From positions 490,648-554,647 of the forward strand of contig NC_089177.1 in assembly GCF_947507565.1 (NCBI RefSeq): a stretch of 64,000 bases of DNA, written 5' to 3'. A program made the position numbers and the translations under genes. This stretch comes from Oscarella lobularis. Taxonomy: Eukaryota. Of this stretch, positions 9,983 through 37,946 are shown one piece after another. The notes under the pieces were generated by a model, which was given only the letters and a program-made list of their open reading frames with translations, was not told where the DNA came from and made no database searches. Positions within the stretch are counted from its first letter, which is position 1. Every line of letters starts with the position of its first letter.

Positions 9983-12900
9983 CTAATACTTCCTCCTCCT
10001 TTTGGGTATAAGCTTGTGTTCAACGACGTCGTTAAAGCTAATGGTCGTCGTTCGCTTGCGCTTGGGCCTTTCCGGGGTTACGTAGTAATTCTCCGGCGCT
10101 TTCAGTATTCCCTGATCGTTTTCATCATTCTTTTTCACCAGCCGTCGAGAGCTACGCTTGATATCCATCGCTACAGGAGCGGGATCAACGTTGACCTTCT
10201 TTCCCCGACGAGTTGACTTCGTGGCAGCCGGCATCAGCGCCGCCACATCCTGACCGGCAGCCGTTCGCGATCGAACTCTCGCGCTCCGCCTCAACGTCGG
10301 CGGATTCTCTTCAGCAGATTCCGGTGCAGCGGCCGCTCGCTTCGTCCTCCTCCTCGTCGTCGTCGTCACTTCAGCAGCCTGTTCCGCCATCGTCTCAACA
10401 GCTAGTGCCGCCGTTTGCTTTCTCGTTGTTCTCTTCTTCGTCACTTCAACAGCAACCGGTTTCGCATCAGCAACTGGTGCTTGCTTCTTCGTCGTTCTCT
10501 TTCTCGTTGTCACTTTGGCAGCAGGTTCGGGTACCGTCGCTACTTCAGGAGCTGGTGCGGCCCCTCGTCTCCTAGTCGCCCGCGTGACCCTCTGCGCCGT
10601 CGCTACTCGAACAGAAGGAGCCCGATTTCGCGCCGATCGTCTCAGGACCATTCCGCCGCCACAGTCCGGGATTGCAAAGAGCGCTGACTCAAAGTTCTTC
10701 TCCGGCGAGGCATCGTTCTTCATCTTTGGCATTCTGAACAATCGCGTCAGCCCATCAAACGCCGAAAGCGACTCTTTCTTCTCTTTCAACGGGCTCGGCC
10801 ACTTCGGCGTAGCAAACATAGTCGGGCAGAAATTTGCCTCGACGTCCTCTTGAGCGTTTTTACTCTTTCGCTGCGGCGTCTTGAACAAATTCGCCTCGTA
10901 CACGTCCTCAACGTTGATTTCCGTCGCGACGGCCTTTTCCTCGACGAGACAAGCTCGTTTTGCAACCGGCGACATAACAAAGTCCGAAGATTTGCGACCG
11001 GAAGCGCCGGTAAATCGAAAAACTGGCTTTGTCGTCGTCGTCGTCGTCGTCGTCGGCGGCGGCTTTTTCAATCGTCTCACACCCTTCAATACCTTTCGTC
11101 CGGCAATCTCCGCTTTCTTTCGCGACACCGTCGATCGCATGATCTCTGACCCGTCAACCGTTTCATTGAACGGAATTCTCTCCACCATCTTTACGCGCTC
11201 AATGGCCGCCGCTTTCTTCTGCGCCGCTCGTCGCAGCGTCATTCCGCCTTCGATCGCTTTACGCAGCGGCGTCTGCATCTTTCGTTTTGCGCGTCGCAAC
11301 AGAGACCGAGCCGCCACGCGGCCAATCTCCTCTCGAATCGGAGTAGCGAGACGTTTCTTCTTCTTCAACGATATCCCCGCTTTGATTTCGTTTCTCATTG
11401 GAGTCGCCATCTTTCTCTTCGTCGTCTTCAGTTGGAGTCCCTGTGCAATTGCCTTTCTCAACGGAGTGAGCATACGTTTCTTCTTTGTCTTCAATTCCAG
11501 TCCCTCTTCTATTTCTTTCCTCATTGGCGTATTCATTCGTTTCCTCGTCGGCTTCAAGTTGAAACCCTTTTGAATTTCCTTCCTCATTGGAGTCGCCAGT
11601 CTCTTCTTTGTCTTTCTCAAAGCAACCCCGGCCTTTATTTCTTTCCGAACGGGAGTAGCCATCTTCTGTTTCGTCTTTCTCAAGTCAAGCCCCTCTTCTA
11701 TTTCCTTCCTCATCGGAGTAGCCATTCTCTTCTTCGTCTGCTTCAAAGTCACCCCGGATTCAATTTCCGTTCTAACAGGAGTAGCCAATTTCTTTTTCGT
11801 TTTTCTCAATTCAATTCCCTCTTCTATTTCTTCTCGCATCGGAGTCTCCATTCTTTTCTTTGTTGGCCTCAGTTCAAGTCCTTCTTGAATTTCCTTTCTC
11901 ACGGGAGTAGCCAATCTCTTCTTTGTCTCCTTCAAAGTGATGCCAGCTTCTATTTCTTTCCTCACAGGAGTAGCCATCTTCTTCTTCGTCTCCCTCAATT
12001 CCGTCCCCTTTTCAATTTCCTTCCTCATGGGAGTAGCCATCCTTTTCTTTGTCTCCTTCAATGCAGTCCCTGACTCGATTTCTTTTCTCAGAGGAGTATA
12101 TAGTCTCTTCTTCGTTGGCCTCAATTCGACGCCCTCTTCTATTTCCTTTCTCACAGGCGTAGCCATCTTCATCTTCGTCTCCTTCAAAGGAACGCCCGAT
12201 TCAATTTCCTCGCGCATAGGCGTAGCCATTCTTTTCTTAGTCGCTTTCATTTCCAAACCCTCTTCGATCTCCTTTCTCATAGGAGTAGCCATTCTCTTTG
12301 GAACGGCGCTGCGATCAATTTTTGAGCTATCGGCTTCATCCATTTTCTCATCGTCAAAGTCGAGATGCGGAGGATCCAGCGTTTTCCGGCGAATCTGACT
12401 GCGCTTTGGCGTCTTCAAAAAGCCCGGAGACGATCGTCGGCGTCCATCTGGAGTCCGCCCCAGCTTCACGGGCATCTTCGGTGGAAGATGCTTATCAAAA
12501 TATTCGGGACTCAGCATGGGACCGAAACGAATACTCCGTCGCGGCTCGAAAGCACTTCCGGCATCGACATCATTTACTTGATTCGTGACGTCAACGCTAT
12601 CGGTCTCCATGGAAATGACGTCATCAGTCCCCTCCCCCTCTTCGCACAAGGGCGCAAGCGGACGAAACGAATTGGACGATTTCGGCTTCGGTTTTCTCGG
12701 CGGCGTCGGCGTGCGTCGCTTCTGCTTCGACGACGGTATTTCCTTCAGCGGCGACGCGACGGGGACGTTTTCTCCGGGATATTCGAATCGAAAGTAACGG
12801 TCGGCGATCTTGATCATGTCCTTGTGAGCGAGACGCGCGCGACCCGTCAACGGCTTGTCGTTGACGTACGTATCGTATGCGTTGCTGAGATTCTCGATAT

Positions 12901-19579: not shown

Positions 19580-19831
19580 AGAAACGCCGTCGTTAGGGAA
19601 ACGCTACGGGACCCCGACTGCACAAAGAAACAAAGATGGCAGTTAGTCTCTCTCTCTAGCGCTCCACGATGGCTCCAAACTGTGTTTCTAGGCGCAAGAA
19701 AGCAAAGACAAGCCGGCAATCGACGACACGCTATTCGAAAATATCGAAAAAGACTTCCAAGATGTCGGTTTTTCGCGTCGTTTCGTCCCCGCTCGTTTTT
19801 CACGTTCGAAACTAAGGTCCTATCGAATCTT

Positions 19832-22800
19832 ATGGGCGACAAGAGCTTCGAAAAGTTTCGCGTCGAGTACGAGAAGCTTCATCGGGCGCTGAAGAAGTCG
19901 CACGACAGCGAAAAACGTCTCATGCAACGATGTCGCGAGCTCAACGCCGAAATCGTCGCCAACGCGTCCAAAGTGAGCCAGGCGCTCAAGATATCGCAGG
20001 AAGATCAGAACACGATAACGCAATTGAAAAAAGTACGAAAAGGCGGGCGCGAATTGAAATGGAAAATTTGATTTTTTTTCCCAATAAAGGAAATCGATAA
20101 AGCTTGGAAAATGGTCGAGGCGTCGCACGACAAGGAGCAGCGCGCTCGCGAGACGATTCAGCATTTGAAGCAGGAGATACAGAATTTGACGCGACTCGTT
20201 GAACAGGGTGCCGGTTTGACGATGGGACAAGAACACAGCGTTCAGGAGCTGCTCAGACTCAAAGACGAATTGACGCAGGATAGAGATGAAAAGTTGGCCG
20301 AAGTTGTTCAGGTACCAGTATCACACTATGAGACCACCACTCATATTACATCGCATTTATTTCTATAGTTGAGACAGCAGCTTGGTGAAGTGACCGACAG
20401 GCAGAAATTCTTAGAGCAGGAGCGCGAAGACACTGAACTGAAAACGGCAGAGGTGGGGATTTTTTATAACCAGGGGTAGCTAAGCTTAGCTGTCATTCTG
20501 CAGCTGAAAGAGGAGATACAGAGGAGGCAGCACGAAGCGCAGAGGGAAATACGAAAGAAGGACAAGTTGGAACGCGAGCTCAAAGTGGCCAAAGTGGATC
20601 TCGATTCGAGAACCGGTGAAGTTAAAGCAAAGCAGTCGCAAGTCCAAAAGCTTCAAGATGACGTGACGAGACTGGAAATGGAATTGAAGGAATCAAAGGT
20701 AAGAAAAGAAGCGGTAAGGATACGTCATTCACAACAAACGCATTTCTTTGGCAGACTTTAAACGAAAGAGCTCAAAAGGACAACGATTCTCTGCATCAAA
20801 AATTAGCTCGAGTCCAGCAAGATTACGAACAGCAGCTACTCAATGCTGACTCTCTGGCTGGGGAAAACGCCCAGCGATTGGCTGAGCTCAAGGCAATGCA
20901 GCAACTTCTATTTTTAGTTGTATTTATTATTATTATTATTATTATTATTTTAGGCGAAGGAAGACGAAGTGTCTTCGATGAGACAGGAGACGAGTCGCGT
21001 TACAAGACAGAAAGAATCGTTGCAGAGAAACCTGAGACGAATCGACGAGCAAAAGATGGACGTTGAAAGAGATCGAGACAATTTGAAGGGCGTCATTCAA
21101 GCTCTCGAAAGAGGTAGATAACCATCCGACTCAACGCCTCTTGAAAAAAATCCACCAATTGGCGAATTTAGAACTGGAGCAAGCGAAGAAGCAAGCGGAA
21201 ATGGACCACAAGTCCTTCGACGATCTAATGAGAGAGAGAGACATATTGACTAAGGTAGCCGTTTTAGAGTGTACAATTGCAATGACGGCAACAGCAAAAG
21301 TCGATTTAGAATTTGAAAAAAGCGGAAGGCGCCACGGAGAAAGCGTCCAACATGGTGAAGCTTCACGAACAGGCTCGAAAGAATCTCGAACAGGAGATAC
21401 AGGTAGAAAAAAAATAAACGTAAGTTCTTTAGCCTCGGCTTCTAGAGTCGATTTCTTTTAGAACTACAAAGACGAGGCGGCGAAGCAACGCAAACTGATA
21501 CATCATCTGGAAAAGGAGCGCGATCGCTACATCAACGAAGCGAGCGACATGACGCAGAAGTGCCTGAAGAGCACGGAAGAGGTGAAGATGCGCGAAATGC
21601 GCATATTCGACTTCAAGAAAAAGATCGCCGAATCGGAGACGAAGTTGAAGCAGCAGCAGAACCTGTACGAAGCGGTGCGAAGCGATCGAAATCTCTACAG
21701 CAAGAATCTGATCGAGGCGCAAGACGAAATAGCCGAAATGAAGCGAAAGTTGAAGATAATGAATCATCAGATCGATCAGCTGAAGGAGGAGATAACGGCG
21801 AAGGAGGCGGCGCTCGTGAAAGAGCACATGGAGCATCAGCGCGTCGAGAAGGAGAAGGAATCGTTGAAGCAGGATCTGATGAAGATGAAGTTGGAGAAGG
21901 ATCGAACGAAGCAGTACATGGAGAGCCAGCAGGCGGAGGAGCGAAAACTCTTGAAGATCATCGCCGAAGCGGATTCGGAGAAGTTGCGACAGAAGAAGGA
22001 GCTCGATCAGGTGATCAACGAGAGGGACATATTGGGGACGCAGTTGATTCGACGAAACGACGAGCTGGCGTTGCTCTATGAGAAGATTAAGATTCAGCAG
22101 TCGACTTTGAACAAAGGTAGGATATATCGATTATTGAACCGGAGGCGCGAGTGAGAACTCTTCCTTATTTTCCAAGGTGAAATACAGTATCGTCAGCGAT
22201 TAGAAGATATACGCATATTGAAGCTTGAGATTAAGAAGCTTCGGAGAGAGAAGGCCATGCTGAGTCGGAGTGTATCCAATGCTGACGAACTCAGGTCTGT
22301 TTACTCTCTGTGTCTTATTAATGGCTATTATTTGCCTTGTTTTCTCAGACGCGAACTCTATCACGCTCAGCGAGAGTTGCTGCGCGAACGAACGCGTTGC
22401 AAGGCGCTGGAAGAGGAGCTTGAGAGCCCGATGAACATTCACAGATGGAGAAAATTGGAGGTGCGCAAAAAGACATGACTCTGTGTTCATATATAGAAAA
22501 TGAGCTTCGTACAATTCGCAGGGAAGTGATCCGAGCACTTTTGAAATGATACAGAAGGTGCAAACACTTCAGAAGCGCCTCATACAGAAGACGGAAGAGG
22601 CGAGACAGCGAAAATGAAACTCTTCACATCGTTATTTCTGATCGTACAGGTCGTCGAGAAAGAGTTGCTGATACAGGAGAAAGAAAAACTCTACGTGGAA
22701 CTAAAGCAAATCCTATCGCGACAACCGGGCCCCGAAGTCGCCGAACAGTTGCAAGTGTATCAGCAGACTCTGAAAGAGAAAACTCGACAGATGAAGGTAA

Positions 22801-23199
22801 GAGGCGGAAGGGACTCGGTATCACTTTCAAGCGGGGACTTGGGGACTCGTAGAGCATGGCCTCCGAGCTGAATATGTACGAGGCACAGGTGACCGACCAC
22901 AAGTACGAAATGGAGCGGCTCGCCAGGGAATTGCAAGACGTCAAGAAGAAGTACTTTCTCCAGAAACGGAAAGAGCAGCAAATACGGTAAGTGGCGCGGA
23001 TGTGCATGGCAACCGCGTTTTCACACTAATTCCGCGCTTTTCTCTCGGGAACTGTAGAGAGAAAGAGCGAGCGCTCGGCCACGTCGCTGCGGCGACCGAG
23101 CCGCCCATGATCCACGCCCAACGGTCGGCCGACGCGCCGCGATTCACGGGTGGCGGCTTCAATCTAAAGCAGCCGGCGAGCAGCAAAGTCGTAGCTTAG
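19832..23199 (+). CDS. CFAP58: CFAP58-like coiled-coil ciliary protein, multi-exon. The start is uncertain.
   Basis: GDKSFEKFRVEYEKLHRALKKSHDSEKRLMQRCRELNAEIVANASKVSQALKISQEDQNTITQLKK...EIDKAWKMVEASHDKEQRARETIQHLKQEI matches the CFAP58 N-terminal region. Coiled-coil exons continue to the stop at 23197-23199. AATAAA lies at 23225. Confidence 0.7.
20917..20950. repeat. (ATT)n microsatellite (intronic)
   Basis: tattattattattattattattattatttt. Confidence 0.9.
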
Positions 23200-30434: not shown

Positions 30435-30648
30435 TTTTTTTTTCGATGTAGTGTATTATTCTTTGTCGAGCAAGTTGTGTACATGCTGACCCTTCCCCAA
30501 GCCCTTTTTGTTAGGCAGCCCCTTATCTTTTTTTCCTATGTCATGAATTAGCGTAGAAGGACGAAAAAGACCTGAAAACGAAATCGTGTCAATCTGCTTA
30601 CGGCATTTTGCGATATCAATTTGTCACGTGCTACTGCAGGGGCGGAAC

Positions 30649-33213
30649 ATGGCATCGGTGATCGGTCTAAAACCGCTCGAGTACGTTCACATATTGGACG
30701 TTAACACGAGCGTCTCGTATGTGGAAACTGGCCCTCAAACAATATCTCTGCAAGACAACGAACGACTGACGGCGGGCCCCCATCCGTTCGTCGTCGTGCC
30801 CCCGGGTCGTTTCTGCATCGTTGAAGATCCCATCGATGCTACGACGTACGAAAAAGGAAAGCAGCCGCGCGTGCGCTTCGGCTCGCTCGACGTGCGCTTC
30901 CACGGCGAGCCTTTCTTTCTCTATCCGGGAGAACGACTTCAAGGAGCACCCAATTTAGCCAATTACAAGCCGGCACTCAAACCGCTTCCAGTCATAAAAC
31001 CGAACCACGGCCTCCGCCTCCGCGCTCGACACGATCACGTCGACGAAAACGGAACGAAACACGTTGCAGGCGAAGAATGGCACCTGGAGGGTCCCCTCAC
31101 CTACAAACCGACTCCGGACGCGGAAATCGTCGACACGATTTCTCCCGCCATCGTCGGCCCAAATCAAGCGCTTCGCTTTCGCGCGCGCGAGCGTTTCGTC
31201 GATCGCACGGGCGCCGAACGCGTCACAGGCGAAGAGTGGCTCGTTCGCGAAGCGGGCGCCTACGTGCCGCACGTCAGCGAAGAAGTCGTCGGCGTCGAGT
31301 CGGCGCACACGCTCACGCGCGATCGGGCGCTGCACGTGCGCGCGCGCGTTACGATCGACGGCGACTCGGCTCTCGGAAGCGCGCGCAAAACCGGCGAGGA
31401 GTGGCCTGTCACGTGCGAAAACGTATCCACCTTTATACCGGACGTGACGGAGGAAGTCGTCAAAGTCGTCAACAAAACGATTCTGACGAATATTCAATAT
31501 TGCGTTGTCGTCAATCCGGTTATCGACGGGAAAAATCGTCTCAGTCAACGACAGCTGCGTCGAGGTCCCGCCGAGTTTTTCCTATCGCCCGGGGAACACC
31601 TGGAACGCGGCATTCAGTCGGCGTTCATACTCGCCGTCGACGAGGCGCTCGTTCTCCGCGCAACGGAGGCGTTCGTCGACGACGAAACGCATCGCGCGCC
31701 CGGCGATCGATGGATGATCGAAGGTCCGACGTCGTACGTGCCGCCGACTCAAGTCGTCGTCGAGCGTCAATCGAAAGCGATACCGCTGGGCGAGAACGAA
31801 GGCGTTTACGTGCAAGACACGCAGACGGGTGCAGTGATCGCCGTCATGGGACCCCAGTCCTATCTACTCAAAGAACACGAGCAGCTCTTTGAGAAAAAAC
31901 TACCGGACGACGTCGAGGAGATGCTGCGACGCGGCGGCGCCATCGGCGACGACGACATTCGCAAGGTCGCTTATTTCGAATCGTCGATCGATCCGAGTCT
32001 CGTTCGATCCGGTGCGCGCGACGCGACGCGCGTCGTTTCCTATCGTTGCCCGGGCAACGCAGCGGTGCAGGTATACGATTATCAGCGTCGCACGGCGCGC
32101 GTCGTTTTTGGCCCAGATATGGTCATATTGGGTCCCCACGAGGATTTCAATGTGTTGAGCTTGAGCGCTGGGAAGCCGAAGCGTGAGAATGCGCTTCGCT
32201 GTCTCGCGCTCATGCTCGGACCCGATTTCATCACCGACATCATCGTCGTGGAGACGGCGGATCACGCGCGTCTGCGCATCAAACTTGCGTTCAATAATTA
32301 TTTTGACGTGAATTGCGACGACGTGGCGGACGCGGCGAAGATTTTCGCCGTGCCGGATTTCATTGGATTCGCCTGTCGCGACGTCGGGAGTCGCATTCGA
32401 AGTGCCGTCGCGCAGACGCCGTTCGACGAGTTCCATCGGCACTCGTCGCGGATTATACGAGCGTCCGTTTTCGGGCTCGACGCTCGGGGCAAAGTGAAGA
32501 ACGAGTTGCGATTCGCCGCGAATAATCTCGTCGTGACGAACATCGACGTGCAGAGCATCGAGCCCGTCGATCGTCAGATGAGCGATAGTTTGAGCAAGAG
32601 CGTTCAAATGGCTATCGAGATTGCCACGCAGGCGATCGAGCGTCAGGCGTCGCAGGAGGCGCGGAGACGCGAGCAGGAAGCGCGCGGCGTCCTGGAGCGG
32701 GAGAAATTGAAGGGGGAAATGGACGCGGAACGCGCCCGCATGGAGCTCTATGAATTACAGGCGATCAGTGCGGCCGTGGAGTCGACCGGTCAAGCGCAGG
32801 CCGAAGCCCAAGCGCAGGCTGAACGGCTTCTCATCGAAGGCGAGAGTGCGATCGAGTCGACGAAGCTTTTCGCCGAGGCGCAGGATGTTGAACATTCGGC
32901 GCTTCTCGACGCGAAGAAGAGATCGAATGAGGGCGAGTTGGGTTACGTGCGCGCGACGAATGAGCTCGAGTTGGCGAAGGCGAAAGCGTTGGCTGGGATC
33001 GAGGTCGGGAAGTTTCGGTCAATGGTGAGCGCGTTGGGATCGGAGACGGTTGCGGCGATCGCCCGCGCTGGGCCCGAGTCGGACATGCGTTTGTTGAAGT
33101 CGCTGGGGCTGCAGTCAACGTTGCTGACGGATGGGAAGAGTCCTGTCAATCTGTTCAACGTCGCTGGGGGATTGGTTGGAGCCACGATGGCAACGTCAGG
33201 CGATGCCCAGTGA
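30649..33213 (+). CDS. MVP: Major vault protein, intronless.
   Basis: Single 875-aa ORF. The N-terminus MASVIGLKPLEYVHILDVNTSVSYVETGPQTISLQDNERL matches the MVP start [37 protein letters not shown]. MVP repeats, a shoulder and a coiled-coil cap-helix region follow. Confidence 0.9.
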   Translation: MASVIGLKPLEYVHILDVNTSVSYVETGPQTISLQDNERLTAGPHPFVVVPPGRFCIVEDPIDATTYEKGKQPRVRFGSLDVRFHGEPFFLYPGERLQGAPNLANYKPALKPLPVIKPNHGLRLRARHDHVDENGTKHVAGEEWHLEGPLTYKPTPDAEIVDTISPAIVGPNQALRFRARERFVDRTGAERVTGEEWLVREAGAYVPHVSEEVVGVESAHTLTRDRALHVRARVTIDGDSALGSARKTGEEWPVTCENVSTFIPDVTEEVVKVVNKTILTNIQYCVVVNPVIDGKNRLSQRQLRRGPAEFFLSPGEHLERGIQSAFILAVDEALVLRATEAFVDDETHRAPGDRWMIEGPTSYVPPTQVVVERQSKAIPLGENEGVYVQDTQTGAVIAVMGPQSYLLKEHEQLFEKKLPDDVEEMLRRGGAIGDDDIRKVAYFESSIDPSLVRSGARDATRVVSYRCPGNAAVQVYDYQRRTARVVFGPDMVILGPHEDFNVLSLSAGKPKRENALRCLALMLGPDFITDIIVVETADHARLRIKLAFNNYFDVNCDDVADAAKIFAVPDFIGFACRDVGSRIRSAVAQTPFDEFHRHSSRIIRASVFGLDARGKVKNELRFAANNLVVTNIDVQSIEPVDRQMSDSLSKSVQMAIEIATQAIERQASQEARRREQEARGVLEREKLKGEMDAERARMELYELQAISAAVESTGQAQAEAQAQAERLLIEGESAIESTKLFAEAQDVEHSALLDAKKRSNEGELGYVRATNELELAKAKALAGIEVGKFRSMVSALGSETVAAIARAGPESDMRLLKSLGLQSTLLTDGKSPVNLFNVAGGLVGATMATSGDAQ

Positions 33214-33428: not shown

Positions 33429-35216
33429 TTGGGCGCCAATAGAGTTATGAGCGACTTCTATGAGGACTTTATTCGGCCCCAGCTAACGGAGCTGATGAAG
33501 AAAATTGACGTTACCGACCATCAAATGTTGAGCTACATGTACCAGGAAAAAATGATAACGGAGGACGACCAACACAATCTGGCAGCCACGTCGCAGATGT
33601 CACCCTCGGAGAAACAAAGATTGTTTTTTCAGACCATTCTAGCACGCGGGCTGGGCTCGGAAGCCAAATTCCGCACGTTTTGTACCGCTTTGACGAAACG
33701 ACGGGGAGCCCACATGGACGATTTGGCTCAGTTGCTTTTGGCCCACGCTAAGCTAGAAGGTAAGCTCATGAATGTGTTGTTCTAACAAGTTAGTGAGGCA
33801 TATCTGCTAGATAGAACACAGCACTCCATGACGTCACGAGGTACCTTACTCTTTTTTATCGCGCTTCGGTACGTGAGGAAACATGACCTGTTGTACAGTA
33901 GGTTTGAAGCGGTCCAGAGCACATGGCGAGTTGCAAACAGCAAAAAAATCAAAGGCTTCTTCACCTGCACCTGAAGGTACCGCAGGCCCGTCATTAGCTG
34001 CGGCGACCATGTTGAATTTAAATCTTTGAGTTTTTTTGTTGCAGATGAACCAGACGGGCCAAGCCGCCGTCGACGCATGAAGCGAAAAAATCCCAGTCGA
34101 AAAGCGATGCGAGAAGGTCGCCGTTCGCAAGAAGCGAAGCGAAAAATTCATCTCTTGGTAGTTTGTGCTCTACCAAAAGAGTTGGAAGCCGCAAAGGATG
34201 CTATAGGAGCACAAGAATGGGAAGAAATCAGGAGTGGAACAATGGGCTATCGCGTCTTTGTTGCTGATGTAACGTGGAAGAATCATTCAAAGAAAAACGA
34301 AATTCGTGTGACTGTAGGAGTTGTAGCTCAATCAAAATCAGGGGGTCAAGAGACTTCCAACTTGCTTGGATCTCTTAACAGTCAATTTGATGTCAATTTT
34401 CTTGCCATGACCGGCTGCTGCGCTGGTGTTGAAGACGTTGACTGCTACAGCGTTATAGTAGCGGATAAGACCACCGCTTTGGAAAGAGAAAAGCATCTCG
34501 AAAGCGCAGTTCAACATCAAGTGGGCCCTGGTGGTGATCTAGAGCACGAATTAATTCAAGCTGTGAATTCACTTCTGATGGATTTGAAGACGTCAGACTG
34601 GCTTGATCCAGAGGTTTCTAGCACTGCTCCACCAAGTCCTCGGCTAGTCCGCGAGTCATTGCTCAAAGCAATTGAGGACAGTGGGAAATCCAGCAAGGAC
34701 GCCATAGAAAAAGCCGTACAGGAGATAAAAAATGTCAACAAAGATATCTACCCAAACATCCTAAATAAGCTCGTCAAAGAAGGCTTGATAGAAAAGCGAG
34801 AAGAAAAAGAGCCTCAGATGCGAATCCTATACTGCCTGTCTGCCGAAGGTGCCAAACACGTTAGTGAGCTTCCCTTCGGTCTTCTATCGCCGGACAAAGA
34901 TCCTTCTGTGCGTGTAACGACACTGTTCACGTGTCAGGACGTTCTCGTCAATCTTAAGAGTGTTCTTCCGAAATTGAAGGAAGCCACAGGCCAACGAAAG
35001 ATAACCGGTGTTGACATGGAAGCTCATCATTTTATGGTGCAGGCAAAGCATTTTTTCCCCAAGTCTTCGTGCATTGTAATGAAAGGGGTTTCTGACCACG
35101 GATCGCCAGAATCAAAAGAAAAATACAATCAAGAGTATGCGTCCAAGTGTGCGACATTGTTTTTGAAGTATTTCTTGGAAAAGAACTTTGAGTATCTGGA
35201 GAAGAAAAAGAACTAA
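33429..35216 (+). CDS. CARD (death-fold) - PNP_UDP nucleoside-phosphorylase/nucleosidase fusion protein. Exons 33429-33759 and 34045-35216, joined by a 285-bp phase-1 GT-AG intron.
   Basis: Exon 1 is a CARD-like domain that is about 65% identical to the CARD of the CRADD-like gene at 37338: FYEDFIRPQLTELMKKIDVTDHQMLSYMYQEKMITEDDQHNL...FRTFCTALTKRRGAHMDDLAQLLL. Exon 2 is a PNP_UDP_1 domain: IHLLVVCALPKELEAAKD...VFVADV...VGVVAQSKSGG...FLAMTGCCAGVEDVDCYSVIVAD...ITGVDMEAHHFMVQAK...CIVMKGVSDHGS. MTAN-type catalytic E/E/D positions appear conserved. The splice frame was verified: G + at gives GAT. Confidence 0.7.
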
Positions 35217-35316
35217 TTTTTTTGACTTTTGATGTCTTTGCGTTTTTGCTTGCTCGTTGCACCTTGTTGCGCTCCCATTGGTACAGGTATGGATACAAGG
35301 CTGAGCATGCGCAAAG

Positions 35317-37233
35317 ATGGACGCTATTTTGAGAAAGAACTTCGTGTTTCTGCGTCGCAATCTTCGCCTGAAGAAGGAATTGTTAGCTTATATGTTTCAG
35401 GAACATTTAATCGATGACGAGGAATATGATCAGTTGGAAAACGAAGCCAAATCAGAGCCGGAAAGAGTTAGGTACTTCATTATGACGGCAATGAGAGGAA
35501 AAACGAAGTCCGATTTACGAAGACTCGTTCAAATGCTCAGAAAAACAAACCAAGAGCCAGTCGCTCACCGTCTCGAACGTGCAAACGTCAGAAAAAAGAA
35601 ATGGTCGAAACGACTGAGGAAAAGGGCGATGCCTTACCTTTCTAGTCTGGTAGTATTTGTGTTTGTACACAAGTTGCTCTGGCGTACGTACCAGGCGAAC
35701 AAACCGCACGTTGAAAAGGTCCTCAAAATAATCTTCGGTAAAAGGCCAGAAATTAAAGAAGGAATTATGCCGGAGAACTCCAATAGCGACACTTCTGACC
35801 CATCAAAAAACCACACACTTGAGATTAAGGAAAGAGTAAAACTGCGCTTTTATTTTCCAAATCTACCAAAAGACACCTACAAAATAGTGGAAGAAGGTCT
35901 CCGATCCAGTCTTTCACTTTCTCTGGATCTTCCCAGAGACCTCTTAGAGGTGTTTGCAAAACCGTTTTCGTCAGTTCTTGTCATTGTCATTCTACCTGGC
36001 GCTGCTGCGCTGAAATTGTTTTCCATTTTGTCTAAGCCTCTACCTAATTTTCTGTATGAAAAATACGGGCCAACTCGTCTTAAGATTGAGAGTTTGCGCC
36101 CAATGAATATTTTATTTGAGAAGGCTTTTGGTATGTAACTTGTCAGAAGATAGAGTATAACAGTACATTTTCTATTTCCTGTAGAGCGGAACTGGGGCTC
36201 ACGAGCTTGGATCCAAGGTCAAGTGGCCCGTCTAAACGAATGTAGGAAAAATTTTCATCAACTCAAGACTCAGTTATCTTACTGGCTACCCCCTCCGTGG
36301 TGGCAAAAAGCAACAAAAAACCGTTTCAGGAAATTTCAGAGTCAACTGGATCACGTTCAAGATGAAATGCAGGCCTTGAAGGACAGTTTCAGCAAGCTGA
36401 GTCTCCTGCCTAAACCCCAGGCTGTTGAAGTTTCTACGCAAACCGAATTACAAGAAGGTACAGGGAACGCCTAGTAGGTGCAATGATTGATTAATTAGTT
36501 ATTAATCCTAGACGATGGCAGATGGTCAGAGACAATAATGTTTCGGGAGTCTTTTTCTCCACAAAGCGGTTTTGCCCTAATAATTAACACCGTTTCACCT
36601 GAAAGTGAATTACATTCTCAAGCACAATCAGAGACAAATAGTCTTCTGTCTACGTTCAAAAAGTTGGGTCTTGTTTGCAAAACAGAAACAAGCGTTAAAT
36701 CAGGTGACGTGAGCGATACACTCGAAAATTTTGGCAATTGCGACTACGCAAAGTACGACTGGCTAGTGTGCTGTCTCCTGGTAGCCATGGAGAAGATGAA
36801 AACAGGCCGTGACTCAGCGGAAGACTGCTCGCCTCTGTGTCTTCACGACATTATGGCGCCGTTTAGAGAATCTAGATGCCCTACCCTTAGTGGAAAGCCT
36901 CGCGTTTTTATTATCATTTCGCCAGCTGGAAGGTCAATTGATGAAACTGGCGATATGCACGTGGAATTCAAAGACGATGAATGGACTTTGCGAGAGGGTT
37001 ATGTTCCCAAAGACTGCCTGCTGCTAGTGTTTCATTACCCCGCTCCAGAGGACAAGCGCTCTTCTTTCGCTACATCATTGCTTGATAATCTACAACAACA
37101 AGGTGGGCAGTTGAACGATGTGGAAGAACTGCTCTTTATGGCATATGATCAACTAATTGATAGTCTGCTTTGGTCTTCGGTGTGGAGTAAGAATACGTTG
37201 AGTAAGGCAATAGAGGTGGCTCTTGAGACTTGA
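35317..37233 (+). CDS. CARD - coiled-coil - caspase-like (peptidase C14 fold) protein that lacks the catalytic dyad, i.e. a pseudo-caspase. Exons 35317-36130, 36185-36457 and 36512-37233, all joined by about 54-bp phase-1 introns.
   Basis: N-terminal death-fold: ILRKNFVFLRRNLRLKKELLAYMFQEHLIDDEEYDQLENEAKSEPERVRYFIMTAMRGKTKSDLRRLVQMLRK. Middle exon is a coiled coil. Last exon aligns to caspase p20/p10: GFALIINTVSPESE...LLSTFKKLGLVC...YDWLVCCLLVAMEK (AME where caspases have SHG) ...RCPTLSGKPRVFIIISPAGRS (SPAG where caspases have QACRG). Donor, acceptor and phase were checked at each junction. Confidence 0.65.
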
Positions 37234-37337
37234 CAAGTTCTACATTTTTTTGCGCGATGATGTTTTATAGACTTTTTCAGACTTTTATTTTGCCCATTGG
37301 AGTTGAAGGGGAGCACACGTGATCTGCTGCGAGGACT

Positions 37338-37946
37338 ATGAGCCGCTACTACGAAAAGTGCATTCGGCCTCGACTAACGGAGCTGATGAAGAGAATCGAC
37401 GTTACTGATCATCAAATGCTGAGCTTCATGAACCAGGAAAAGATGCTGTCGGACAACGACCAACACAATCTGGAATCCACTTCCCTGATGCGACCCTCTG
37501 AGAAAGATAATCTATTCTTTCACACCATTCTAAGAACCGGACTGGCCACGGAAACTCAGTTCCGCGCGTTTTGCGCCGCTTTGACGAAACGACGAGGAGC
37601 CGAAAAGGACGATTTGGCTCAATCTCTTTTGAAAGGCGCCGGCCTCGAAAGTGAAAGCGCGTCGCGTACTTCGTTTGAAAGGAAGCCAACTTCTAAAGAG
37701 CTGAACAACTTATCGAAGCTAATAGCGAGCGACGACATGTGGAAGCCGCTCGGCAGATGTCTCGATGTTCCGGACTCGAAGTTGACCGAAATCGCAGCCA
37801 CGCATCATTCTCCTCGAGAACGAGCGTACCAAATGCTACAGTCGTGGGTCGAAAAGAACTCGAACGCCGCAACGGTGAAACTACTGTGCGAAGCACTCTG
37901 TGAAGAGGGTCGCGACGATACGGCAAAGGAAATTTTTGGCTGGTGA
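37338..37946 (+). CDS. CRADD: CRADD/RAIDD-like adaptor (CARD + death domain), single exon.
   Basis: 202 aa. The N-terminal CARD is a paralogue of the CARD at 33429. The C-terminal death domain reads ELNNLSKLIASDDMWKPLGRCLDVPDSKLTEIAATHHSPRERAYQMLQSWVEKNSNAATVKLLCEALCEEGRDDTAKEIFG. Size and architecture match human CRADD (199 aa). Confidence 0.65.
   Translation: MSRYYEKCIRPRLTELMKRIDVTDHQMLSFMNQEKMLSDNDQHNLESTSLMRPSEKDNLFFHTILRTGLATETQFRAFCAALTKRRGAEKDDLAQSLLKGAGLESESASRTSFERKPTSKELNNLSKLIASDDMWKPLGRCLDVPDSKLTEIAATHHSPRERAYQMLQSWVEKNSNAATVKLLCEALCEEGRDDTAKEIFGW

Follow-up and report, generated by a model that had tools for sequence, protein, structure and literature searches.

Background

Introns of the same phase on both sides of domain-encoding exons are the textbook signature of exon shuffling under the Patthy class 1-1 model, and the best-documented cases of 1-1 exon shuffling involve extracellular matrix and adhesion modules. 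Here we consider an intracellular case, an array of three tandem genes with N-terminal CARDs (g1, g2 and g3) in the homoscleromorph sponge Oscarella lobularis. The array lies within 64,000 nucleotides (nt) of RefSeq assembly GCF_947507565.1 (contig NC_089177.1, positions 490,648 to 554,647 of the forward strand, read 5' to 3'), which we call the window and number from its first letter.

In sponges, the 1-1 mechanism has been documented for the aggregation-factor (AF) allorecognition genes, which in Amphimedon queenslandica have 154 of 155 introns in phase 1, a pattern read as exon shuffling (PMC5400394). The Oscarella array resembles the AF genes in its domain-sized exons, uniformly phase-1 introns, symmetric internal exons and short sponge introns, and both are self/non-self or immune-type families. 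The AF genes are extracellular (Calx-beta, VWA, Wreath) and run to tens of exons, whereas the array encodes intracellular death-fold and enzymatic effector modules, has five introns only, and has two domain junctions without an intron. Vertebrate NLR/NLRP-type genes offer a second precedent, their PYD/CARD, NACHT and LRR exons being set apart by introns that share one phase. Like the array, these genes attach varied downstream modules to a death-fold adaptor exon, in immune families that diversify by exon exchange; exon shuffling is invoked for zebrafish NLR genes in a paper that gives no phases (PMC4852459). The Oscarella genes differ in lacking NACHT and LRR, their effectors being PNP, pseudocaspase, Death and GT4.

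Individual members have their own counterparts. DDAN, a Death-domain-PNP protein of Amphimedon queenslandica, has ATP nucleosidase activity in vitro (bioRxiv 10.1101/2023.01.24.525353). As in DDAN and bacterial Cap17/DtcC, g1 has a PNP-type domain at its C-terminus, fused to a death-fold domain and matching models of bacterial defence effectors; in contrast to DDAN, its adaptor is a CARD and not a Death domain, a helical insert of ~100 residues interrupts the PNP, and its nucleosidase function is a prediction. With cFLIP and the CARD-caspases (caspase-2, caspase-9, CED-3), g2 shares an N-terminal death-fold recruitment domain and a C-terminal caspase fold, and as in cFLIP the catalytic Cys and His are missing. 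Unlike cFLIP it uses a CARD and not tandem DEDs, and unlike both cFLIP and the CARD-caspases it has ~270 residues between CARD and caspase fold and a caspase-like domain in one exon. The third gene recalls CRADD/RAIDD in being a CARD plus Death protein of ~200 residues with a CARD profile closest to the RAIDD CARD, a likeness of domain layout and sequence, but it lacks an intron between the two domains. Finally, a catalogue of bacterial and invertebrate effectors lists PNPase, caspase and GT4 domains on death-like adaptors, among them invertebrate GT4-conflict glycosyltransferases with a fused death-like/TRADD-N adaptor (Kaur et al. 2021, PMC8195603). Two Oscarella paralogues described below (L003 and L004) similarly join two CARDs to a full-length GT4-conflict domain; unlike the array they lie outside the window, and their exon models are predicted.

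A literature search found no paper on the intron phases of sponge CARD or Death genes. Novelty is a matter of gene class and lineage only, the layout itself being already known; as it stands, the observation on gene structure is correct, limited in size and in line with known rules. What the array encodes (CARD-PNP, CARD-pseudocaspase, CRADD-like) arguably holds more interest than the phases of its introns. If the pattern held genome-wide, it would extend 1-1 exon shuffling to genes for intracellular death-fold and effector proteins in an early-branching animal, and would supply a concrete route for coupling bacterial-type immune effectors (PNP nucleosidase, GT4) to animal adaptor domains.

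Intron phase and exon symmetry in the CARD array

The three genes stand head to tail on the + strand (Table 1), and all five coding introns of the array (three in g1, two in g2; 51-68 nt, GT-AG) are in phase 1. Because every coding intron has this phase, all three internal exons are symmetric 1-1 (30 nt and 75/78 nt in g1, 273 nt in g2). Each effector domain, PNP and caspase-like, is contained in one exon. We put at roughly one in two the probability that the array is a genuine class 1-1 modular gene layout, in which domain-sized exons are joined through same-phase introns.

The g1 exons were located by exact mapping of RefSeq XP_065828228 (530 amino acids, aa) and XP_065828229 (529 aa), and the spliced g2 product (602 aa) is identical to XP_065828206/7/8 (isoform X1, uncharacterized protein). 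Every donor and acceptor of the array is kept at a syntenic locus (L001/L002) of the sister assembly ENA ERZ18545485, at ~95% nucleotide identity. All nine exonic indels in L001 are multiples of three, including an in-frame 6-nt insertion in g1 mini-exon 3, and the only two intronic indels measure 5 nt (g2 intron 1, 59 nt in L001) and 1 nt (g1 intron 3).

A CFAP58-like gene in the same window, onto which RefSeq XP_065828199 maps exactly (its 6-nt first coding exon was read by eye), serves as a control. Phase 1 accounts for five of five introns in the array versus 2 of 16 in the CFAP58-like gene (one-sided Fisher p = 21/20349, or ~0.001, by hand calculation). Set against this gene, the introns of the CARD genes are typical of the genome in size and atypical in phase. 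Genome-wide intron phases in Amphimedon are 44/36/20% (PMC5400394), and at the 36% phase-1 base rate of that other sponge, five of five has a probability of ~0.006. The CFAP58-like gene also has two apparent GC-AG introns, with donors at 20893 (GCAATG) and 22600 (GCGAGA).

A first-pass annotation of this DNA had proposed introns at 33760-34044, 36131-36184 and 36458-36511, all in phase 1 and placed at CARD|PNP, CARD|coiled coil and coiled coil|caspase-like boundaries. Each interval does have GT and AG at its ends and interrupts a codon after its first base, and the two in g2 coincide with the 54-nt phase-1 introns of the RefSeq model. The g1 interval is not a single intron: the RefSeq proteins, 35-36 residues longer than the 494-residue model drawn earlier, place two mini-exons inside it and leave three introns of 51, 58/61 and 68 nt. 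The claim of uniform phase and symmetric exons emerges somewhat stronger than it was made, at five introns and three internal exons. The idea that introns bracket whole domains holds for g1 and for g2 intron 2, which fall in inter-domain linkers, the latter ~9 residues ahead of the caspase fold in the alignment, as a coiled coil|caspase-like boundary would have it. It fails for g2 intron 1, which splits codon 272, ~175 residues beyond a CARD that ends near residue 95. The domain labels CARD and caspase-like are borne out by profile and homologue matches, and the PNP label probably holds as well.

All three g1 introns fall inside a 66-residue linker between the end of the CARD (~residue 100) and the start of the PNP core (~residue 170). 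Isoform X1 of g1 takes the CAG of a tandem CAGTAG (NAGNAG) acceptor, so that mini-exon 3 starts at 33899; this pair of RefSeq isoforms presumably reflects transcript evidence. A version of g1 that skips both mini-exons would stay in frame and is not an annotated isoform. At g2, isoform X2 (XP_065828209, 367 aa) uses an acceptor AG at 36520-36521 and begins its exon at 36522, 10 nt downstream. It is frameshifted and stops after DGQRQ, giving a CARD-middle-helical product without the pseudocaspase domain, possibly a CARD-only-type regulator.

Table 1. Genes, exons and introns of the CARD array and of the control gene, in window coordinates
Feature	Position	Strand	Length (nt)	Description
g1	33447-35216	+		CARD, disordered basic linker, PNP-type nucleosidase
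g1 exon 1	33447-33759	+	313	start codon and whole CARD (residues 1-104); ends in phase 1
g1 intron 1	33760-33810	+	51	GT-AG, phase 1; splice sites conserved in L001
g1 mini-exon 2	33811-33840	+	30	symmetric 1-1; linker DRTQHSMTSR; in RefSeq isoforms X1 and X2
g1 intron 2	33841-33901	+	61 (58 in isoform X1)	phase 1
g1 mini-exon 3	33902-33976	+	75 (78 from 33899 in X1)	symmetric 1-1; basic linker
g1 intron 3	33977-34044	+	68	GT-AG, phase 1
g1 exon 4	34045-35216	+	1172	~30 residues of basic linker, then PNP-type nucleosidase domain
g2	35317-37233	+		CARD, unknown middle domain, helical segment, catalytically dead caspase domain
g2 exon 1	35317-36130	+	814	CARD (~residues 1-95) and ~175 residues; ends in phase 1
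g2 intron 1	36131-36184	+	54	GT-AG, phase 1; in-frame stop inside; splits codon 272
g2 exon 2	36185-36457	+	273	symmetric 1-1; predicted two long coiled-coil-like helices and short linker
g2 intron 2	36458-36511	+	54	GT-AG, phase 1; splits codon 363
g2 exon 3	36512-37233	+	722	entire caspase-like domain
g3	37338-37946	+		single 202-codon open reading frame; CARD and Death domain, CRADD/RAIDD-like
CFAP58-like gene	19636-23199	+		17 exons; 16 introns of 50-71 nt, phases 0/1/2 = 12/2/2

Effector domains of g1 and g2

The C-terminus of g1 matches two PADLOC models, PDC-M60C (1.4e-17) and the CBASS 'Effector PN-superfamily' (8.8e-8). It has no Pfam match with the helical insert in place; PNP_UDP_1 becomes detectable because the insert is removed, at 6.7e-4 over profile positions 3-227 of 233, although at 19.6 bits the score stays below the gathering cut-off of 25.1 even then. 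A phmmer search of the PNP region against sequences of solved structures (PDB) gave only a spurious talin match, and the PNP assignment therefore rests on the PADLOC and Pfam profiles. The insert itself is helical, spans residues 324-425 of the 529-aa isoform (window ~34500-34830), and has weak PadR / MarR / winged-helix similarity (E 0.005-0.05).

Among 1.84 billion representatives searched for the C-terminus of g2, HMMER returned 143 matches at E <= 1e-3, of which the best reaches 2e-15 and nearly all cover residues ~375-510, and Peptidase_C14 (PF00656) is carried by 36 of the 39 aligned homologues. The positions of the catalytic SHG and QACxG motifs read AME and ISPAG in g2, and on this ground we call the domain a pseudocaspase, that is, a caspase homologue whose sequence lacks the catalytic dyad. 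In the preceding exon, helices at residues 279-305 and 309-343 were predicted by a single-sequence AlphaFold2 model of low confidence (mean pLDDT 38.8), too poor for a fold search and used for secondary-structure hints alone.

Between the CARD and these helices, residues 96-271 of g2 (window 35602-36130) have no homologues among the same 1.84 billion representatives except the orthologue. This is the most constrained part of g2, with a ratio of nonsynonymous to synonymous divergence (dN/dS) of 0.37, and it includes a hydrophobic stretch at residues 217-239, FSSVLVIVILPGAAALKLFSILS, with a Kyte-Doolittle mean of 2.45. The region may be a membrane-associated or novel domain set between CARD and pseudocaspase.

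Two CARD lineages and the CRADD-like gene

Scanning the window by tblastn with the three CARD sequences recovered exactly three CARD-bearing genes, and a scan that used every CARD and Death sequence turned up no additional death-fold exon in it; the cluster therefore consists of three genes. Single CARD sequences are weak in Pfam (E 0.16 and 0.028; 12.5 and 14.9 bits against a threshold of 23.9). A profile of the array CARDs and two paralogues finds the RAIDD CARD (3crd) as its best solved-structure match (2.7e-5), followed by CED-3 at 0.006 and caspase-9 CARDs at 0.04-0.08. The g3 Death domain is clear (Pfam 1.4e-15, residues 122-199 of 202 aa), and g3 is accordingly a two-domain CARD and Death adaptor of the ~200-residue size expected of CRADD/RAIDD. 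Its open reading frame (ORF) is uninterrupted, with no intron at the CARD|Death junction, and is intact and free of indels in L001.

The g1 and g3 CARDs share 68% protein identity and 79% DNA identity. That of g2 is only ~22% identical to either and, judged by this low identity, represents a distinct CARD lineage. Homology between g1 and g3 at the DNA level is confined to the CARD coding part, from the ATG (33446) to ~33740-33759, where g1 exon 1 ends. One might take this end point as proof of an intronic breakpoint; we rejected that argument, as the alignable DNA begins right at the ATG as well, and with a four-fold-site distance of 0.44 between the two genes any neutral flanks would have ceased to align anyway. 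The difference in structure may reflect intron loss in g3 or gain in g1. In g3 (37641-37700), the site homologous to the g1 exon 1 donor (GAAG|GTAAGC) reads GAAA GTGAAAGC. A cryptic 48-nt in-frame GT..AG intron (GAAA|GTGAAA ... CTAAAG|) can be drawn there, which we do not claim, there being no polypyrimidine tract and no support for it; the 48-nt interval could be the relic of a lost intron, or a coincidence.

CARD-CARD-GT4 paralogues outside the window

Homologue searches with full-length g2, g1 and the CARD profile returned self, the orthologue and two paralogue ORFs only. These two ORFs (P0082 and P0089), which resemble the g2 CARD, lie on another contig of the sister assembly. They belong to two recently duplicated CARD-CARD-GT4-conflict genes some 44 kilobases (kb) apart (L003, 9560-12126, and L004, 9565-12506; ERZ18545485 ptg000081l). 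In both, the ORF is intact under a model of five exons: CARD-a (271 nt), CARD-b (318 nt in L004, 1-1), a mini-exon of 81 nt, an acidic linker exon of 123 nt with a nuclear localization signal, and GT4-conflict in a single exon. All four junctions of this model are predicted from sequence alone to be phase 1, and every splice model under which both ORFs stay open uses phase-1 junctions.

For the least certain of these introns we went through all possible GT/GC-AG pairs. Every donor that fits the polypyrimidine acceptor gives phase 1, and the GT donor at 10296 with the acceptor at 10397 keeps both ORFs open. An alternative CARD-b donor at 10314 in L004 (AC|GTCAAA) was rejected, since the equivalent L003 site creates a TAA at the junction. 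The predicted introns fall 0-4 residues from Pfam domain ends: the CARD occupies residues 17-90 and exon 1 ends at residue 90, while GT4-conflict occupies residues 269-657 (Pfam 1.7e-76), in a last exon that opens at codon 265.

CARD-a is similar to the g1/g3 CARD and CARD-b to that of g2, so both CARD types of the array reappear, each in a predicted exon of its own, alongside a fourth effector. Overall, the same two CARD types are found with four different partners. Both paralogues are flanked on the opposite strand by Ank/Roc ORFs and a Death-like match (L003 19379-19534, L004 15075-15218), and a 380-nt insertion in L004 (~10640-11020) contains a second, decayed copy of the linker exon together with its acceptor.

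Possible exon shuffling and its alternatives

Between same-phase introns, intronic recombination, exon duplication or insertion, and exon skipping would all preserve the reading frame. CARD modules would thus be combinable with different effector exons, and the linker could vary in frame as well, as at the cassette mini-exons and the NAGNAG acceptor. The sequence shows the junctions, phases, exon symmetry, domain identities and contrast with the neighbouring gene; that shuffling, and not later intron gain, produced the layout is inferred, as would be any timing or direction of module movement. Exon shuffling is plausible as an interpretation but unproven, and it is helped by the paralogues. 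The first-pass annotation had gone further and derived the array from recombination of one CARD exon with different effector exons; the phase-1 1-1 layout and the paralogues favour the modular recombination, and the single CARD exon has to be given up.

Several observations weigh against exon shuffling. No single CARD exon is common to the array, given the divergence of the g2 CARD, and introns are missing at the junction of CARD and middle region in g2 and of CARD and Death in g3; in these details, the missing introns and the two CARD lineages, exon shuffling is contradicted. The breakpoints between g1 and g3 would fit exon shuffling and an old gene duplication equally. The sample of introns is small, and those around the mini-exons are not independent events. 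To preserve the frame, any exon that is born or inserted within a phase-1 intron has to be 1-1. The two g1 mini-exons may have arisen in this way inside one pre-existing phase-1 intron, and g2 exon 2 likewise, which leaves perhaps only two to three independent events (p ~0.05-0.13). Furthermore, of the [AC]AG|[AG] proto-splice sites in the coding sequences of g1 and g2, 44-50% are already phase 1; gain driven by composition could produce much of the bias, and at 0.47 per intron would yield five of five with a probability of ~0.02.

This last point leads to the alternative that survives best, though we hold it to be unlikely: independent insertion of introns at MAG|R proto-splice sites in acidic or charged linkers. 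GAA-GAN (Glu-Asp) dicodons place such a site after the first base of a codon, so that phase and position would simply mark where gain was tolerated. The junction sequences agree with this: GAA G|..|AY (Glu|Asp) is seen at three of the five, and the exon ends in AG| at four. So do the proto-splice sites of the CFAP58-like gene, of which 26% are phase 1 and 66% phase 0, mirroring the phase-0 majority (12 of 16) of its own introns, and so do the two domain junctions of the array that have no intron. Even so, the value of ~0.02 for five of five is low, and it drops to ~0.001 for nine of nine when the predicted paralogue junctions are counted. Composition also leaves unexplained why PNP, caspase-like, GT4 and CARD-b domains each occupy a single exon with boundaries 0-9 residues from the domain ends, and why the same CARD types recur with different partners.

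A further explanation, to our minds more doubtful still, is chance coupled with non-independence: if only two to three introns are truly independent and the mini-exons were exonised within a phase-1 intron, the pattern would be little informative. The mini-exons do encode low-complexity linker of 30 and 75 nt inside one 285-nt interval, and the frame is kept when both are skipped. Moreover, the three introns originally annotated would all be phase 1 by chance with a probability of as much as ~0.05 at the 36% base rate. Against chance stand the contrast with the neighbouring gene, with its 2 of 16, and the CARD-CARD-GT4 paralogues, which add four predicted phase-1 junctions, one of them between two CARDs. 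Selection for in-frame alternative splicing, by which symmetry would be maintained because skipping a linker or coiled-coil cassette yields functional isoforms however the genes were assembled, is very improbable: RefSeq isoforms exist at both genes (the g1 NAGNAG variant, the g2 alternative acceptor), every internal exon can be skipped in frame, and symmetric exons encoding disordered regions are a known trend (PMC3632108), but 0-0 or 2-2 exons would be equally symmetric, the sole documented g2 variant is a frameshifting acceptor and not an exon skip, and no exon-skipping isoform is annotated.

If exon shuffling is nonetheless accepted, a wider and decidedly speculative proposal can be made, which we think unlikely in its full form. 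In Oscarella, and perhaps in sponges generally, intracellular death-fold immune genes would be assembled from phase 1-1 cassettes, with conflict effectors of prokaryotic type (PNP ATP nucleosidase, GT4-conflict glycosyltransferase) captured as single intron-free exons and wired to CARD adaptors by shuffling, and the three genes of the array would form one functional CARD network. Such a network, comparable to a eukaryotic defence-island module, would consist of a CRADD-like adaptor (g3), a CARD-nucleosidase executioner (g1) with a CARD 68% identical to that of the adaptor, and a CARD-pseudocaspase decoy or regulator (g2).

Divergence, spacers and flanking sequence

Gene order is common to L001/L002 and the window, running from a sulfate transporter through ENTH, major vault protein, g1, g2 and g3 to an IRS-domain gene. 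Divergence was measured on window 33447-37946 against L001 9330-13873. The dN/dS values are 0.79 for g1, 0.66 for g2 and 0.36 for g3, and by domain 0.78-0.89 for the CARDs and 0.77 for the pseudocaspase. Relative to the sister assembly, g1 and g2 are fast-evolving. The three g1 introns are 98% identical to their L001 counterparts, a higher identity than that of g1 exons (92-97%) or of synonymous sites (dS 0.075).

The intergenic spacers are tiny, at 233 nt ahead of g1 and then 100 and 104 nt, with no AATAAA between genes. An E-box, GCACGTGA, occurs twice upstream of g1 (33315 and 33386), and AGCACACGTGA (37312-37322) lies 26 nt upstream of the g3 ATG. The inverted CCAAT motif CCCATTGG has only two copies in the 64 kb, at 35274 and 37293, the first 43 nt upstream of the g2 start codon and the second 45 nt upstream of that of g3. 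The E-box, the inverted CCAAT and the short spacers suggest compact promoters shared among the genes of the array.

The gene upstream of g1 encodes major vault protein (30586-33213), apparently as a single ORF of ~875 codons, and ends 233 nt before g1; this adjacency is kept in the sister assembly. Farther away, the 10-12 kb region of the window has a skewed composition (GC skew -0.21, AT skew -0.32) and many overlapping plus-strand ORFs, and coincides with a very long minus-strand ORF of 955 codons (9983-12850). It is probably low-complexity or repetitive coding sequence.

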